A stretch of DNA of 30,348 nt from an uncultured Candidatus Saccharibacteria bacterium (GTDB lineage: Bacteria; Patescibacteriota; Minisyncoccia; 2-02-FULL-40-12; IGHO2-01-FULL-4-A): contig CAYUQA010000085.1 in NCBI GenBank assembly GCA_964446135.1, positions 1 through 30,348 of the forward strand, written 5' to 3'. The notes beneath the pieces are model-generated. The model worked only from the letters and a program-made list of their open reading frames with translations, was not told the DNA's origin and made no database searches. Of this stretch, positions 25 through 16,125 are shown one piece after another (the first letter of the stretch is position 1; each line of letters starts with the position of its first letter). The translations under genes were made by a program, and so were the position numbers.

Positions 25-97
25 GCGCCCGTAGCTCAATCGGAAGAGCGACTGCCTTCGAAGCAGTAGGTTGTAGGTTCGAGCCCTGCCGGGCGCG
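25..97 (+). tRNA. tRNA-Arg, anticodon TCG; CCA not encoded (followed by CA)
   Basis: Cloverleaf: acceptor GCGCCCG 25-31/CGGGCGC 90-96, D-stem GCTC/GAGC with A20 Arg identity base, anticodon stem ACTGC/GCAGT around CT-TCG-AA, T-loop TTCGAGC. Confidence 0.96.
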
Positions 98-99
98 CA
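83..99 (+). repeat. 17-bp direct repeat copy 1 (tRNA-Arg 3' end, GCCCTGCCGGGCGCGCA)
   Basis: Identical to 198-214; flanking bases differ on both sides. Confidence 0.95.
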
Positions 100-2946: not shown

Positions 2947-3555
2947 ATGAAACTTCGAGCTACAATAATCTTCGTCGTTGCATTTGTGATTATATTTGCA
3001 ACATTGAATTTCTCTTCAATCATAAATGAGTTTAATTTCGCGACGCGCGATGTGCTCAATGCTCAAAGTATCAATGCATTTTATCTGCCGCTTTCAGCAG
3101 ATAAGAAACAGCAAGATCTTACAGAAGAAGCGACTCTAGTCATCGAAAAGCTCAACATATCGGCACCGATTATTTTCTCAAAAGCTCAAACAACAGATGC
3201 TATATATACTGATCTAAAAAAGGGTGTTGTTGTATATCCGGGCAGTGTCAAACCGGGCGAGCAAGGCTCTTCGCTGATTCTTGGACATAGTTCGAGCTAT
3301 CTGTGGGATAAAAATAAATATGGCAATATTTTTGCCCTAATAAATAAACTTCAGATCGGCGACACTTTTAGCATCCGCTATGCTGACGGTCAAACGTTCC
3401 GTTTTCAAGTTGATGAGTCTCTAATATTCAATCCATTTGATTCAGATAGTCTTGCCAAATTAAGTGCTACCGAAACCAGCAACGTCATTCTCATGAGTTG
3501 TTGGCCGACCGGTACTTCACTCAAACGCATCGGTATCAAAGGCGTACGCATATAA
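2947..3555 (+). CDS. Sortase family transpeptidase (202 aa)
   Basis: N-terminal membrane anchor, L.I.KLNI strand, catalytic His in ILGHSS, catalytic Cys in VILMSCWP (TLxTC variant), downstream Arg in KRI. Confidence 0.88.
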   Translation: MKLRATIIFVVAFVIIFATLNFSSIINEFNFATRDVLNAQSINAFYLPLSADKKQQDLTEEATLVIEKLNISAPIIFSKAQTTDAIYTDLKKGVVVYPGSVKPGEQGSSLILGHSSSYLWDKNKYGNIFALINKLQIGDTFSIRYADGQTFRFQVDESLIFNPFDSDSLAKLSATETSNVILMSCWPTGTSLKRIGIKGVRI

Positions 3556-3642: not shown

Positions 3643-3718
3643 CCGCCCTTAGCTCAGTTGGTAGAGCTGCTCCCTCTTAAGGAGAAGGTCGTTGGTTCGA
3701 ATCCAACAGGGCGGACCA
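3643..3718 (+). tRNA. tRNA-Lys, anticodon CTT, with encoded CCA
   Basis: Acceptor CCGCCCT/AGGGCGG, discriminator A, CCA 3716-3718; D-stem GCTC/GAGC; anticodon loop CT-CTT-AA; T-arm GTTGG-TTCGAAT-CCAAC. Confidence 0.96.
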
Positions 3719-5189
3719 TTTGAGATTTTTTACCACCAGATTCTTTATTGATGGCGTAGATATTAGATAATTTGGTGGTTCCAAATTTCTCACCGTCAAA
3801 GAACGGTTTTTCGTCAAAAATCATATTTTGGAAACGAACATTATTTGGGTGAGTCAATCTTAGCCATGTTTTAGCTGTCTCTCTTACAAAGTTAAAACAA
3901 TAATCCAGAGATTCTTCCATGTTAAACTCTTCAATATGGCTCTCCTGTAATAGTTGCCGCTTTTCGTATATTTTCTGATTAATCAAATCTTTCTGCTCAA
4001 CAAACTCCTCATCGTTATATCTGCCCGCTCTATGAAGATCAAAAATTTTTAATCTATCTTGCTCTAGATTCTCAACCTCTTTATTTATTTGAACATTCTC
4101 CTCATTAAATCTTTTGTAATTTGACTGCCAAATATCTATCATGATGGCCTTAAACATTTTCTCGTATTTTTTATTCGGAGTAATCTTGGTTAAATATTCA
4201 ACAAATAACTGTTCAAATGTTTCTTTGGGTATAAACTTTGCATTCTCGCAATTTTGACGATGGTGATGATAGTAAGGATATTTTACCCTCTTTCTTCCGG
4301 TAGAATAGCTACCGGTTATAGAGGTTCTGCAATTAGGACAGACAACTTTTCTTAAGGGGAAATTGGGATTAGCGCTTATTCTTTGTGTAGATTGAGATCT
4401 ATCTTTCTTTTTGCGCTGGCATTGATTAAATAACTCCTCACTAACTATTCCAAATGAACTTTTTATTCTCATTCCCCACACATCTATAATCCCACAATAT
4501 ATCGGATTCTTAATTATTCGCTCCATTAGTTGAGCAAAAGGTATTTTATTATTTCTAGTTCTAAATCCACGTTCACCTATGAATTTAGCCAATGCACGAT
4601 AACTATATTTGCCCTTAGCATATTCTTCGAATAAAAGTCTTATGTAAACAGAATCTTGAGGATGTGGTTCAATATTCGAACCAGAGTAAGATCTATAAAA
4701 ACCAATAGGAGCCGCCCATGTCCAAATTCCCTTCTTAAGCTGTTCCATCATGCCACTTATGCTCCTTTCTTTTCTGACGTTATTGTCTAATTCGGCAAAG
4801 ACAGAAAGCACACCCTCCATAGCCCTACCAAAAGGCGTTTCATTAATCGGCTCCGTAACTGATTTAAGCTCTGTTCCGAATTTTCTTAATATCGTCCTAA
4901 CGTTGACGTGATCATCTTGATTCCTTGCAAAACGATCTAACTTGTAAACAATAAAATAGTTAATGGGCTTTTTTTTGTTAGAACAAAGCGATATCGCTTT
5001 CATAAACTCTGGCCTGTCAGCAGTCTTAGCCGATTCTCCACGATCAACAAAAACTTTCGGATCCATAATTCCTAATTTCGTAGCATATTCACGGCATAGT
5101 CTTTCTTGCATATCTAAACTTGTTCCCTCAACCTGTTCCTTTGAAGAAACCCTACAATACAACACTCCCGTTTTTGCTGATTCGCTCAT
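3654..5189 (-). CDS. Large serine recombinase/integrase (511 aa): resolvase catalytic domain, recombinase domain, zinc ribbon, coiled coil
   Basis: LYCRVSSKEQ catalytic Ser motif, YKLDRFARN, WAAPIGFY, CPNC..YYHH..C ribbon; last 21 codons and TGA lie antisense within tRNA-Lys. Confidence 0.93.
   Translation of the reverse strand: MSESAKTGVLYCRVSSKEQVEGTSLDMQERLCREYATKLGIMDPKVFVDRGESAKTADRPEFMKAISLCSNKKKPINYFIVYKLDRFARNQDDHVNVRTILRKFGTELKSVTEPINETPFGRAMEGVLSVFAELDNNVRKERSISGMMEQLKKGIWTWAAPIGFYRSYSGSNIEPHPQDSVYIRLLFEEYAKGKYSYRALAKFIGERGFRTRNNKIPFAQLMERIIKNPIYCGIIDVWGMRIKSSFGIVSEELFNQCQRKKKDRSQSTQRISANPNFPLRKVVCPNCRTSITGSYSTGRKRVKYPYYHHHRQNCENAKFIPKETFEQLFVEYLTKITPNKKYEKMFKAIMIDIWQSNYKRFNEENVQINKEVENLEQDRLKIFDLHRAGRYNDEEFVEQKDLINQKIYEKRQLLQESHIEEFNMEESLDYCFNFVRETAKTWLRLTHPNNVRFQNMIFDEKPFFDGEKFGTTKLSNIYAINKESGGKKSQMVRPVGFEPTTFSLRGSSSTN
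3698..3716 (+). repeat. attL-like 19-bp direct repeat (CGAATCCAACAGGGCGGAC)
   Basis: Exact match to 7653-7671; runs from the T-loop to the first C of CCA. Confidence 0.93.
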
Positions 5190-5383
5190 GACTGTATTTT
5201 ATTGCTTTCCCCAAGTTTGTGCAGTATCCCAATAGGATACTTGGAACCACTTACACTATCTAGCCAATCATCAAAAATAAGCCGTCCTAACTCATAATAT
5301 TTATCGCGTATCTTAATAGCCTCATCATCAGAGATGCCATTTAATTCTGGGTCTATTTTTCTTAATTTCTCTATGTTGAGCAT
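5186..5383 (-). CDS. Small hypothetical protein (65 aa) translationally coupled to the recombinase
   Basis: Stop overlaps recombinase start (ATGA at 5186-5189); helical charged sequence. Confidence 0.7.
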   Translation of the reverse strand: MLNIEKLRKIDPELNGISDDEAIKIRDKYYELGRLIFDDWLDSVSGSKYPIGILHKLGESNKIQS

Positions 5384-5439
5384 AGGGTATCAGTCTGTAT
5401 TTATTATCTCAACCTGGGGCATTTAAAGCCCAAAGGTCC

Positions 5440-5625
5440 CTACTTTTTACTACCTTTTCTCTCTATGTCCTCTGATAGTTTTCGGTAGTAATTCTCATTC
5501 TCTAAAATTGATTTGATTGAATAAGTTTTTCCATTCGAGGGAACTATGCCGTAATAAGCTCTAACAAAAGCATCCCTTAACTCCTTATTTGGTATTTGTT
5601 CAACTAAATTTATTGTCTGGATCAT
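5440..5625 (-). CDS. Small hypothetical protein (61 aa)
   Basis: ATG start, co-oriented with island genes, AT-rich upstream spacer. Confidence 0.55.
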   Translation of the reverse strand: MIQTINLVEQIPNKELRDAFVRAYYGIVPSNGKTYSIKSILENENYYRKLSEDIERKGSKK

Positions 5626-5633
5626 ATAGTTAT

Positions 5634-5948
5634 AAATAAAAATCCGCTTAATTCGATGGGGGTACCACTTGGAATGACGACCCCCGCCGAATCAAACGGA
5701 CATTTCCCAAGTAGTTTACCGCCAAAACAGAAAAAGACCTCTCGCTAGAGGCCCTTTCTTTAAATAATCGAGAAAAAGCTCTACTAGCTCTTTCTCGCTC
5801 ACGAGGCGAAGGATTTAACCATGTTCTGTATAGGCTTAAAAATCTTCAAGCCATCAAGACGCAGTGAATTTACCGAATAACGAATCGGGGAGGATCTCAC
5901 CCCCTGATTCACCAAGCAGTTTTCTCTCTGCCTTTAGAATCTACAGTT
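5634..5948 (-). ncRNA. Candidate structured RNA or attenuator leader of the recombinase operon
   Basis: ORF-free; stem-loops at 5914-5933, 5882-5910, 5769-5797, 5736-5753 (+U-tract) and 5643-5700 (+U-tract); A-C mismatches on + become G-U pairs on -; TTGACA at 5982-5977 on - upstream. Confidence 0.4.
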
Positions 5949-5984
5949 GATTCCATTAAAGCAATTCGTGTATCTTTGTCAATC

Positions 5985-6236
5985 TTATTTGTCGATAAAT
6001 ATCATTTTTGGCACTTCGATTGTCGTCTCTATCGGCGTGACTGGTCTCCCGAACGCACGATCAAATAAAATCTGAGTTGCCTTTAAATCACCTTGCTTTG
6101 CGCGCTCTATAAGTCCAGTAACGATTAGTCCCAAAGAATTCCCAACTTGCTGAACTATATACTCTCGGAACTTCTCAGCCTGAACGCCACTAAATCCCTG
6201 TTTCCTGCCTGCATTTTCTCTATATCCACCTCTCAT
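5985..6236 (-). CDS. Hypothetical protein (83 aa) resembling phage terminase small-subunit-like/DUF5681-type proteins
   Basis: N-terminal GGYRENAGRKQG and C-terminal GDLKATQILFDRAFGRP resemble motifs remembered from such phage proteins; function not verified. Confidence 0.55.
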   Translation of the reverse strand: MRGGYRENAGRKQGFSGVQAEKFREYIVQQVGNSLGLIVTGLIERAKQGDLKATQILFDRAFGRPVTPIETTIEVPKMIFIDK

Positions 6237-6273
6237 AAAATTTGATAAGAATCAAAGATGATAATCGCAAAGA

Positions 6274-7290
6274 TTACCAAGAATTAATTTGGAAACTACC
6301 ATTGTTTATCTGCTGGGTTTGTATTCTGGTGCCACCAGGACCATAGCAGTCATAACCACCGTTAAGTGGGTGACAGATTGTTGAAGAATAGCTTCCGGAT
6401 TGATCAATATAGCCAGTATACGGTGATACGGGAAGCTTAACACCCATATCTTTGAGTTTTTGTATGGCATTGTATTCCAGCTGACTTGCCGTCCAATATC
6501 CTCCTGCTGCCTGGTATTCCTTAAGGAGTTGCTCCTTAACTTCGGCTAATTTATCGTTGTATTGTTTCCACTCGGTCTCAAATCGAGCTATTGCTGGATC
6601 TTTCTGATATTGAGCAGGTTTGTTTACGGCAGAGTTGGCAGATTGCATCTGCAACATCATTTCCCGCAAAAATTGATTAGCTTGATCCATTTGCTGACCA
6701 TAATTTTTAATCTGTTTTAATGATTGCTGTGTAGAAGCTTCAAAAGCATCTACTTGTTGGTTATATAATCCGATTGTTCTTATCTCTAGATTCTCATATT
6801 CTGCTATAACATCAGTTCTAGGATTTTCACCCTTTTTCAATCTATCAATTTCCTTATCTACCAAATCTAAAAGAGTATATTGATATCCAAGCGCAGTGGT
6901 GTTTGCATCTCTTAAGCCAGGAGCAGTGTTATTGGTTATTATTAAATTATTTTTGGTGATTTGATTTCTTAAAGCCTCAAGTCGTTGGATAACTGTTTTA
7001 TCCATTATTGGAATTGTTGTCTTTACGGTTCTCTGAACTTTTTTGACAGCAGCTCCTTTGTTCGTGTTTTTTACTTCCGAGGGTTTCGTAACATATTTTT
7101 TCTCAGATTCCTCTTTCATCATTCGTTGAAGTCCACTGGACTTATCAATTAAAGAGTCTTGTTGGACAGCTTCTTGCTTAAAAAGTTGCCAATTATCGAA
7201 CCAAGTAAAAGGATTCCACCAAGCTGCAAAAGTAACTTGCGGATAGAGTATAATTCCCAAAATCAAGCTAAATAGTATACCTTTCTTCAT
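6274..7290 (-). CDS. Secreted coiled-coil hypothetical protein (338 aa from MKKGILF) with AAWWNPFTW motif
   Basis: Signal peptide MKKGILFSLILGIILYPQVTFA; C-terminal Cys pair; start chosen at 7290 because the promoter lies at 7298-7326. Confidence 0.8.
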   Translation of the reverse strand: MKKGILFSLILGIILYPQVTFAAWWNPFTWFDNWQLFKQEAVQQDSLIDKSSGLQRMMKEESEKKYVTKPSEVKNTNKGAAVKKVQRTVKTTIPIMDKTVIQRLEALRNQITKNNLIITNNTAPGLRDANTTALGYQYTLLDLVDKEIDRLKKGENPRTDVIAEYENLEIRTIGLYNQQVDAFEASTQQSLKQIKNYGQQMDQANQFLREMMLQMQSANSAVNKPAQYQKDPAIARFETEWKQYNDKLAEVKEQLLKEYQAAGGYWTASQLEYNAIQKLKDMGVKLPVSPYTGYIDQSGSYSSTICHPLNGGYDCYGPGGTRIQTQQINNGSFQINSW

Positions 7291-7297
7291 AAAATAT

Positions 7298-7326
7298 ATT
7301 ATAACATAAAATTCTTTAGATTGCAA
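7298..7326 (-). promoter_or_regulatory. sigma70 promoter giving a leaderless mRNA for 6274-7290
   Basis: TTGCAA (7326-7321), 17 bp, TG-n-TATAAT (7303-7298); ATG lies 7 nt after the -10 box. Confidence 0.7.
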
Positions 7327-7547
7327 TTAGGGTACTTGAATCCGCTCTTCTGCGACTTTATCTCGGATTCTAATATCAGAGGGTATTATATCGCCAAGAA
7401 TAATCGCTATTTTCAAGCACTTTTCCAAAATCTCTCCATTTGTTAAGCTCTAATAATAGGTGATTCCAATTCTGTCCTATTAGGCGGACATTCTAAACAA
7501 TAAAGTCGAATTTATTTGGCTTTATTGTTTAGATATATTTTGTATCT

Positions 7548-7652
7548 TGTTGGATTCGAACGCCGGAGCGACTGTTTCGTCAGCAGACGAAACCGCGAGG
7601 CGCGGCCTGGAGACCTAGTTCCGACGGCTGGTCGGGACTAGAGTCGAAATGG
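7548..7652. repeat. tRNA T-arm mirror plus GC-rich hairpin cassette at the island right end
   Basis: 7548-7561 (TGTTGGATTCGAAC) is the exact reverse complement of tRNA-Lys 3695-3708; hairpins GTTTCGTC-AGCA-GACGAAAC (7574-7593), CCGCG-AGG-CGCGG (7593-7605), CTAGTTCCGAC-GGCTG-GTCGGGACTAG (7615-7641). Confidence 0.8.
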
Positions 7653-7671
7653 CGAATCCAACAGGGCGGAC
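7653..7671 (+). repeat. attR-like 19-bp direct repeat of tRNA-Lys 3' end
   Basis: Exact match to 3698-3716; followed by AAAC rather than CA. Confidence 0.93.
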
Positions 7672-7696
7672 AAACTATCTTTCACAAGGAGACGGT

Positions 7697-8242
7697 ATGG
7701 ACTGGACAAAATTAGAATATGAGTCACGAGATATTTTAGAAGAAACAGTAATCAGAATACAAGAGGCGATTCTTGAGGTATTTAACATGAAGGGCGACAA
7801 CCGTTGCTGGCTGGCATACTTTATTATCTACGAAGCCGCTGATATCGCTACGTTGTCATCCTCGGCCAGATTTCCAAAAGAAGATTTTGGTGATCGCTGT
7901 GATCATTTTATTGAGCACAGTCCTAACCCAGATCAAATGGTCTTATGGGAAAATGCCGAGCCATATCACACATACGATGTTTCAAAAATGAATGATGCAA
8001 AACTTCGTGCATACATCAGAAGATGCCGCAAAGTAATCGGCGTCCATTACCGTAAATTCTTAACTGGTAAATACGATTACAAAGATGACCAAAAAATTAT
8101 CGCACTTCTGCCCCAAAAAATTATCTTCGACACTAGACTACCTGATAGAGAAAAAATGAGACCAAACTGTGATCGATTTTACGAGTGCAAAGAAGCACAA
8201 CTCGATAAAAACGGCTTCACCGACTGGCACCGTTGGGAATAG
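7697..8242 (+). CDS. Hypothetical protein (181 aa from MDWTKL)
   Basis: AAGGAG Shine-Dalgarno at 7686-7691 before ATG 7697; terminator follows; no recognisable family. Confidence 0.7.
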   Translation: MDWTKLEYESRDILEETVIRIQEAILEVFNMKGDNRCWLAYFIIYEAADIATLSSSARFPKEDFGDRCDHFIEHSPNPDQMVLWENAEPYHTYDVSKMNDAKLRAYIRRCRKVIGVHYRKFLTGKYDYKDDQKIIALLPQKIIFDTRLPDREKMRPNCDRFYECKEAQLDKNGFTDWHRWE

Positions 8243-15957: not shown

Positions 15958-16125
15958 ACGAACCCTGACAATCCGCAAGCACTCTCCCGCATCTTAATAA
16001 AACGCGGGGTAGAATAATAGCGAGGTATATCCCAGTCGAAACCAAGATACCCGTCAACAAGAATATTCCAATTGAATCCGATGTCTCCAACAAGATTCAT
16101 GTGCCTGCGGATTGTCAGGGTTCGT
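15958..16125 (-). ncRNA. 6S RNA-like rod-shaped ncRNA (168 nt)
   Basis: 25-bp closing stem (20-bp perfect IR + G-U + 4 bp on -), central region, terminal stem with UUCG tetraloop at 16037-16040 near the midpoint; G-U pairs favour -; TAAGTT -10 candidate at 16137-16132. Confidence 0.6.

Follow-up and report, generated by a model that had tools for sequence, protein, structure and literature searches.

Whether a second copy of a tRNA 3' end marks the limit of an integrated island or belongs to something else that trails the tRNA is the question raised by positions 7546-7671 of the DNA analysed here, a stretch of 30,348 nucleotides from an uncultured Candidatus Saccharibacteria bacterium (hereafter, the window). 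An earlier note, made from the letters alone, had described a folded cassette at this place and had offered several readings of it, namely a structured attP arm of the adjoining integrase island, a tRNA-mimicking RNA or cruciform, or a small independent mobile unit. Here, we show that the cassette lies beyond the island and is one copy of an undescribed three-armed, RNA-like element of about 110 bases that stands behind many CPR tRNA genes.

Repeats and fold of the cassette

The two arms of the cassette repeat the tRNA-Lys(CTT) gene in opposite orientations, at the positions where they had been claimed to bracket the fold. GTTCGAATCCAACA (14 nt) occurs once in the tRNA (3695-3708, plus strand) and once inverted at 7548-7561 (minus strand), with no further match in the window even when one mismatch is allowed, and none of 100 shuffles gave two matches. 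Likewise, CGAATCCAACAGGGCGGAC, the last 19 nt of the tRNA-Lys body, is exact at 3698-3716 and 7653-7671 and found nowhere else in the window, and no shuffle yielded two matches; the direct repeat with the tRNA 3' end is a perfect 19 bp, its copies lying 3955 bp apart. The plus strand of 7540-7680 has a predicted folding energy of -68.5 kcal/mol against a shuffle mean of -45.1 (z = -5.33; 0/200 shuffles), and the minus strand of the same stretch folds less well (z = -4.6). The repeats and the fold of the cassette are genuine and not due to chance, and the description of a GC-rich cassette in an AT-rich island agrees with the measured GC (0.60 for the cassette vs 0.38 for the island).

The minimum-free-energy fold and the family model described below agree on a three-way junction (Table 1). 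Of the multi-way junction of three hairpins described previously, the structured fold stands, while the arrangement as three hairpins on a four-way junction does not: CCGCG/CGCGG, formerly taken for a 5-bp hairpin, forms the 3' strands of P2b and P2. ARAGORN reported no tRNA, tmRNA or permuted tmRNA in the cassette, a scan of 7300-7800 revealed no intrinsic terminator (GC-rich hairpin plus T run) inside it, and no promoter-like site was found for the element. The AT-rich hairpin upstream lies between DR1 (with the island removed) and the inverted arm, at the centre of an imperfect long palindrome that extends from DR1 to IR-L.

Table 1. Coordinates of the features at the cassette and the neighbouring island (positions in the window).
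Feature	Position	Strand	Description
tRNA-Arg(TCG)	25-98		
tRNA-Lys(CTT)	3643-3718	+	ARAGORN; Rfam tRNA 67.6 bits; 3' end 3698-3716 is DR1, copied by the cassette in both orientations
Large serine recombinase	3654-5189	-	511 aa as integrated; Pfam Resolvase, Recombinase, Zn_ribbon_recom; last codons antisense through the tRNA
Island right end (attR core GGCGGAC at 7483-7489, and P arm)	7370-7489	-	Conserved motif, L081 boundary, junction alignment
AT-rich 19-bp hairpin, then TATATTTTGT	7492-7533	+	Sole terminator-like site in 7300-7800
IR-L	7546-7561	+	Inverted tRNA-Lys T-loop, T-stem 3' strand and first acceptor bases; 5' strand of P1
P1 closing helix	7546-7558 : 7653-7665	+	13 bp, one G-U
Conserved core	7561-7652	+	P2/P2b/P3 arm (GGA/GA internal loop, AGCA tetraloop) and P4/P5 arm
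Second arm, P2	7561-7564 : 7599-7602	+	
Second arm, P2b	7568-7570 : 7594-7596	+	
Second arm, P3	7574-7581 : 7586-7593	+	AGCA loop
Third arm hairpin	7615-7625 : 7631-7641	+	11 bp
DR2	7653-7671	+	Direct copy of the tRNA-Lys 3' end (T-loop C56 to the C that follows the discriminator base); 3' strand of P1

Ends of the serine-integrase island

The integrase belongs to a large family (2498 homologues at E <= 1e-20), of which the single named match is a Minisyncoccia (CPR) protein. In 57 of 80 GTDB species-representative loci, its 3' end overlaps a tRNA 3' end, the targeted tRNAs being mostly tRNA-Glu and in some cases Lys, Ala or Arg. Serine integrases are expected to have short cores. Searching these 80 loci for long direct repeats as attR markers mostly returned none because the core is short, and the longer repeats found in loci L020 and L058 turned out to be part of cassettes.

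The right end of the island can be placed on three lines of evidence. First, the motif GATTCCAATTCTGTCC..GG.CAC is conserved in at least 13 loci of the integrase family; in the window it occupies 7410-7489 (GATTCCAATTCTGTCCTATTAGGCGGACA). The motif always closes with a few bases repeated from the acceptor 3' strand of whichever tRNA is targeted, and similarity between the loci ends there. At L005, where no tRNA adjoins the integrase end, the motif and core stand directly against the integrase 3' end without a cassette, which is an attP arrangement. Second, L081, the closest relative (its integrase is 82% identical), matches the window over 7368-7490 with 76% identity, and blastn conservation ends at 7490; it shares no sequence with 7491-7652 and has no such cassette there. 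Third, joining the integrase gene to 7482 via the core GGCGGAC yields a 528-aa protein that aligns with residues 460-527 of the long-form homologue P0039 (46% identity, E = 9e-19), its added tail, LIGQNWNHLLLELNKWRDFGKVLENSD, covering residues 503-527. In the excised form, the P arm (7370-7482, minus strand) encodes the C-terminal ~37 residues of the integrase. When the junction is made through the 19-bp repeat instead, the alignment with P0039 is lost at the core and the resulting tail has no homology. Based on the motif family, the stop of L081 at 7490 and the junction alignment, attL is 3710-3716, attR is 7483-7489 and the island is 3717-7482, with the cassette about 60 nt beyond its end.

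The proposal of an island spanning 3717-7652 whose attP has the cassette as its structured P arm, which encodes an alternative integrase tail and abuts the att core in the excised circle, could draw on the perfect repeat with a distant tRNA, on an integrase lying just inside it and on an open frame that, via the 19-bp-repeat junction, would extend 19 codons into the cassette, yet it is hardly credible given that the family-wide P-arm motif and core lie upstream, that homology to long-form integrases is restored via 7483-7489 and not via the repeat, that the closest relative has the island end without the cassette, and that the same element follows tRNAs without any island.

The corrected map of the locus, then, has an island with a 7-bp core and a 19-bp repeat that belongs to a separate element. 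Displaced tRNA 3' fragments mark the ends of genomic islands and form the basis of the Islander method (PMC4383910). The element resembles such islands in its direct tRNA 3' copy downstream of an intact tRNA, with inserted DNA between and the gene left functional, but differs in that its block measures ~100-200 nt, lacks an integrase and adds an inverted target copy and a conserved structured core; the 7-bp core of the real island in the window differs from the repeat of the element. Delimiting islands by a displaced tRNA fragment would misplace the ends wherever the element trails a tRNA.

Several further features of the island were noticed. The integrase has its attP within its own reading frame, with the last ~37 residues (LIGQNWN...) swapped on integration for a tail read antisense to the tRNA (..PVGFEPTTFSL..), and the residues E498 and P499, invariant in the family alignment, lie in this second tail where it is antisense to the T-loop TTCGAA of the tRNA. 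The long tail is present in homologues of 535-555 aa (P0027, P0036, P0039). A 65-aa ORF at 5186-5383 (9807-10004 in L081) overlaps the integrase start codon, is kept with the integrase in L081 and L084, and could be a small accessory protein of the island, for instance a directionality factor.

A family of elements behind tRNA genes

A search for similar cassettes at other tRNAs, as the earlier note had proposed, found them in number, which bears out its suggestion of a small unit independent of the island. Among the fetched loci, 7 of 111 tRNAs are followed within 600 nt by a copy of their own 3' end of at least 11 nt. The shared layout comprises the tRNA, a hairpin, the inverted 3' part of the tRNA, a GC-rich core and the direct tRNA 3' end, with a core consensus of GAA.G.CGGAGCGA, a hairpin and then CG(C/T)GAG.CGG. 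A metagenome scan with the core pattern returned 120 loci, ~24 of which, on low-GC contigs, are true copies; a tRNA lies within 400 nt upstream in 18/120. From this sample, chosen with the core-derived pattern, 18 copies were used to build a covariance model (R1) from which the window was left out. R1 recovers the window copy at full length (7550-7663, plus strand, model positions 1-108; 55.3 bits, E = 2.7e-13), with its IR-L aligned to model positions 3-9, and further detects 13 copies in 1.28 Mb of CPR genome loci and 49 in 0.44 Mb of member loci (CPR-type DNA). The model gives a working tool for a structured element that is common in CPR genomes and contained in no RNA library.

Covariation across the copies is strong. 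In the 18-copy alignment, 92.2% of the cells are paired and compensatory changes affect 26 of 39 pairs; no shuffle among 500 reached the observed values, and slid controls were 32-43% paired. The 49-copy alignment, which was fitted to the model and so favours pairing, shows compensatory changes in 37 of the 39 pairs. One G-U pair occurs in 18/18 copies and another pair alternates between G-C and G-U. G-U outnumbers A-C by 42 vs 7, which assigns the fold to a single strand, that of the tRNA sense. All seven P1 pairs vary on both sides across the family; the conserved unpaired bases are the GGA/GA loop and the junction GG. The core of ~90 nt folds into two arms of the three-way junction, and the third helix is made of sequence from the local gene.

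No match in the window cassette was obtained from Rfam 15 at the gathering score, and at a permissive threshold the best score over the cassette was 13.9 bits against a gathering score of 80. Canonical members likewise returned nothing at either setting, including tRNA, tmRNA, self-cleaving ribozymes and omega- or bridge-type RNAs, and literature searches found no published description of the element. In IMG/VR, a loose core pattern gave only chance matches in GC-rich coding DNA, and a specific one gave 24 loci, none of which passed R1. Several identities were dropped on inspection by eye, namely a hammerhead core (CUGANGA is absent), a kink-turn (the bulge has 1 nt, not 3) and group II domain 5, 5S rRNA and SRP helix 8. 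Kissing of the AGCA loop with the CTGC loop of the upstream hairpin was likewise dropped, as no covariation supports it (L231).

The position of the element is tied to the 3' end of a gene and to its sense strand. Each of the 32 copies that have a tRNA no more than 450 nt upstream shares its strand, over 17 anticodon classes, and several of the sampled tRNA clusters have the element behind every tRNA. Seven other copies, that of the window included, have an island attR motif or core just upstream, so that an integrase island alone separates each from its tRNA; the window copy, on the plus strand like tRNA-Lys, follows this tRNA once the island is removed. In most copies, P1 consists of IR-L and DR2 and has no conserved sequence itself. 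The closing helix is built from the 3' end of the local upstream gene, in nearly all cases a tRNA gene and occasionally one for a protein, so the arms change with each tRNA (GGATTCG/CGAATCC, GGATTTG/CAAATCC, GGGAATTGAAC/GTTCAATTCCC, and up to 19-24 nt in L283); whether the inverted arms do so was the test proposed in the earlier note. In most copies, IR-L corresponds, as reverse complement, to the part of the tRNA that begins in the T-loop and continues into the acceptor strand, and in a second group it is the complement of the acceptor end and trailer. DR2 usually starts at T-loop C56, in keeping with the notion of a unit that nests in tRNA T-loops, which was too narrow in that other copies start at the acceptor end or at a protein-gene 3' end. 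In copies whose DR2 begins in the T-loop or close to the acceptor end, IR-L extends 2 nt further upstream than that beginning.

The direct repeat ranges from about 6 to 37 nt across copies, and IR-L is often closer to the real tRNA than DR2 is (L283, L275, L303); in L283, IR-L matches over 19-24 nt and DR2 over 6 nt. In L003 and L283, everything between and including DR1 and IR-L forms one long palindrome whose arms measure ~38-39 nt, the loop in L283 being 4 nt. A terminator-like hairpin precedes IR-L in most members, with a CTGC loop in 17/48 (within 75 nt upstream of the model match); its stems vary freely, and the loop in the window copy is TTTA, not CTGC. Two further identities considered by eye do not fit these arms, since P1 often passes the discriminator base into the trailer (against a mimic of the tRNA acceptor/T minihelix) and DR2 is decayed in several copies (against a T-loop intron).

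Several findings speak for insertion. Related loci differ in whether they carry the element. At tRNA-Ser(CGA), it is found in 3/8 loci, and at the five empty sites neither core nor inverted arm is present and the tRNA end occurs without a second copy. Elements at L063 (2126-2260) and L070 (14888-15022), from MAGs labelled as different CPR lineages, stand at the 3' end of an ftsZ-like ORF (..WGAVPAFLRRSKLK*), where the final codons together with the stop are duplicated in a 37-nt repeat, to whose start the arm is complementary. At L247 (7050-8500), the clustered genes for tRNA-Cys, Leu(TAA), Lys(CTT) and Leu(TAG) each have a diverged copy behind them, and a fifth copy is situated inside a duplicated 5' fragment of tRNA-Lys (a pseudo-tRNA), with its direct repeat in the D arm. 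Tandem copies occur in L231 and L265. The cores of L304 (tRNA-Arg) and L277 (tRNA-Ile) are 97% identical, with locus-specific arms and hairpins, and those of tRNA-Ser(CGA) copies in two contigs are 93% identical; other nearest neighbours share either a tRNA type across contigs or a contig. Both descent and spread have therefore taken place. Degenerate or core-less versions exist as well, including a decayed copy in L081.

The start of the window contains a comparable arrangement. The tRNA-Arg(TCG) 3' end (83-99, 17 nt) recurs 115 nt downstream at 198-214, and the 98-nt spacer between (100-197) contains a hairpin and a stem-loop of GGCC-AGCA-GGCC, a layout reminiscent of the element in decayed form, although its score with R1 is below significance (6.9 bits).

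Origin and possible function of the element

We hold with moderate confidence that 7546-7671 belongs to a repeated structured element of CPR (Patescibacteria) genomes, non-coding and strand-specific, that is separate from the island and entered as a non-autonomous insertion. More generally, the element is most likely a non-autonomous, target-duplicating insertion element with an RNA-level fold, and we rate it as a structured miniature insertion element whose target-derived arms are unprecedented. The inserted block would comprise the hairpin, IR-L and the core, and its insertion near a gene 3' end would duplicate 6-37 nt of the target as DR1 and DR2, so that the gene would automatically stay intact at any site. 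Fold-back or hairpin-templated synthesis may have produced the inverted arm from the target, or may have maintained the match between the two later on. The core appears to be constrained as a single strand of tRNA sense, most simply as RNA from tRNA read-through; in such an RNA, DR2 would pair with IR-L, which would otherwise be antisense to the tRNA T arm. In the window, the element probably settled behind tRNA-Lys first and the island entered the tRNA afterwards, which would explain why the 19-bp repeat looked like the att repeat of an island inserted between the two.

Several observations sit poorly with parts of this reading. Clustering of the neighbouring ORFs for a partner enzyme showed that the serine integrase alone recurs, because of how the loci were chosen, and no transposase, integrase or reverse transcriptase is consistently nearby; terminal repeats and the length of the target duplication are not fixed, unlike in ordinary transposons. 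Read-through RNA is opposed by the terminator-like hairpin between the tRNA and the element and by the lack of a promoter-like site. In a single transcript of the unoccupied locus, moreover, IR-L invading the T arm is predicted to be 7 kcal/mol more stable than the tRNA with P1, which speaks against P1 in a read-through RNA; it would therefore make a difference to the tRNA whether P1 forms or transcription terminates at the hairpin. Finally, copies within one contig have diverged with compensatory changes and the same tRNA has related copies across genomes, so a long-maintained functional RNA fits these as well as a selfish element does.

MITEs, the Correia elements of Neisseria and the palindromic elements of Rickettsia are structured miniature bacterial repeats whose terminal inverted repeats are specific to the element and whose target duplication is short and constant in length. 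The element is like them in being short, non-coding, multi-copy, present or absent between loci and predicted to fold, and they are sometimes co-transcribed with their neighbours. Unlike them, it has inverted arms that are locus-specific copies of the target, a duplication of 6-37 nt and a place at gene 3' ends on the sense strand. A miniature mobilised by a transposase was rejected on the grounds that element-specific terminal inverted repeats are absent, as the arms differ by locus, and that the duplication length is not fixed. A closing helix rewritten from the 3' end of the local gene in both orientations is predicted by no ordinary scheme of transposition or site-specific recombination, and points either to an unfamiliar insertion chemistry or to an RNA obliged to pair with its own tRNA.

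[quoted passage not shown] We consider this rather unlikely, while acknowledging how much it accounts for: the strong compensatory covariation, the conserved unpaired GGA/GA loop and junction GG and the near-invariant G-U pair, the constant placement on the strand of the tRNA, a diverged copy at each of four tRNAs of one cluster, the similarity of the tRNA-Ser(CGA) cores on two contigs, two pairing states close in energy, and an IR-L that often fits the real tRNA better than DR2 does. It sits less easily with the absence of the element from five of the eight sampled tRNA-Ser(CGA) loci, with the putative decayed copy in the window (the tRNA-Arg spacer) and the decayed one in L081, and with copies at protein-gene ends, in a pseudo-tRNA fragment and in tandem; nor does an RNA function need a direct repeat of target length, and a terminator-like hairpin separates the tRNA from the element. 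A known small RNA from a tRNA 3' external transcribed spacer is 3'ETS-leuZ of E. coli. If expressed, the element would be similar in its location in the tRNA trailer on the same strand, but it has no relation to 3'ETS-leuZ in sequence or structure, and its tRNA-derived arms have no counterpart there.

Alternatively, the fold might act in DNA as an attachment structure, with a single strand folding IR-L onto the repeat to rebuild the target duplex for a recombinase, in the remnant of a miniature integrative element or as what is left, at one end, of a larger island of another family that has since been deleted; we find this improbable. CTX phage attP(+) and integron attC sites contain inverted site copies ~90 nt apart that form a stem on one strand, long attC sites being branched terminally, and the layout of the element parallels the ends of an integrated CTX prophage (an inverted copy, ~90 nt, a direct copy beside host DNA and a target-identical repeat opposite). 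Two inverted copies ~90 nt apart likewise form a stem on a single strand of the element, its fold is specific to one strand, palindromes such as that of L283 (~39-nt arms, 4-nt loop) would suit such a site, and in L072 a second integrase adjoins the direct repeat, suggesting use as attB. However, the element is linked to no recombinase, Xer-type site or rolling-circle gene, the core was not seen at the end of any larger element, two core-derived patterns found no copy on viral contigs, and locus-specific arms would require a new matched pair for each target. The conserved internal loops and tandem G-A motifs also look like an RNA or a protein-binding core rather than a spacer. An integron attC or CTX-type att site proper was rejected, as there is no IntI or Xer neighbour (the serine integrase alone recurs) and the arms are not constant; unlike those sites, the element has no dif, R'' or R' consensus, its arms are local target sequence, and the intervening sequence is the conserved part.

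Within the preferred reading of an insertion element, the inverted arm may be a working guide that pairs across the intact target and directs insertion at gene 3' ends, chiefly at the near-universal T-loop motif of tRNAs, with a copying or fold-back step rewriting both arms for each target. This extension, which builds on the arm reaching 2 nt past the start of the direct repeat, strikes us as doubtful; if true, the element would be a new kind of non-autonomous mobile unit, with nucleic-acid-guided, target-copying insertion and no linked recombinase gene. Guide-bearing transposon RNAs include the omega RNA of IS605, with its scaffold and flank-derived guide, and the bridge RNA of IS110. The element shares with these a conserved structured scaffold and a variable segment equal or complementary to the flanking target, but genes for TnpB, IscB or an IS110 recombinase are not nearby, its variable segments pair with each other, and it has no Rfam match.

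The surroundings of the cassette offered several minor observations. The ORF just 3' of it (7697-8242, listed as 7649-8242) is an orphan without a Pfam domain, and a collection of 5.8 billion proteins held no homologue of it other than the window's own 197-aa product. Exact-protein matches for the flanking sortase and HAD genes were confined to short contigs of one sample, broken at the tRNA and at 7643. In the relatives L081, L083 and L084, tRNA-Arg(TCG) lies 19-25 nt upstream of tRNA-Lys(CTT), and in the window a gap of 3.5 kb that holds genes for a DUF11 surface protein (320-2923) and a sortase (2947-3555) separates the two. Elsewhere in the window, a 25-nt inverted repeat (15958-15982 and 16101-16125) is 96% complementary, with 118 nt between its arms.

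Finally, L072 (5854-11546 in flipped coordinates) contains two integrase islands in tandem, the first at tRNA-Glu(CTC). A cassette-like element after the first attR scores 10.9 bits, and the second integrase copy abuts its direct repeat, which was probably used as a secondary attB. The integrase genes of both islands appear interrupted, the frame of the second being open through the cassette and the hairpin into the P-arm coding motif of the first island. This locus suggests that the direct repeat of the element can be an extra landing site, making tandem islands possible.
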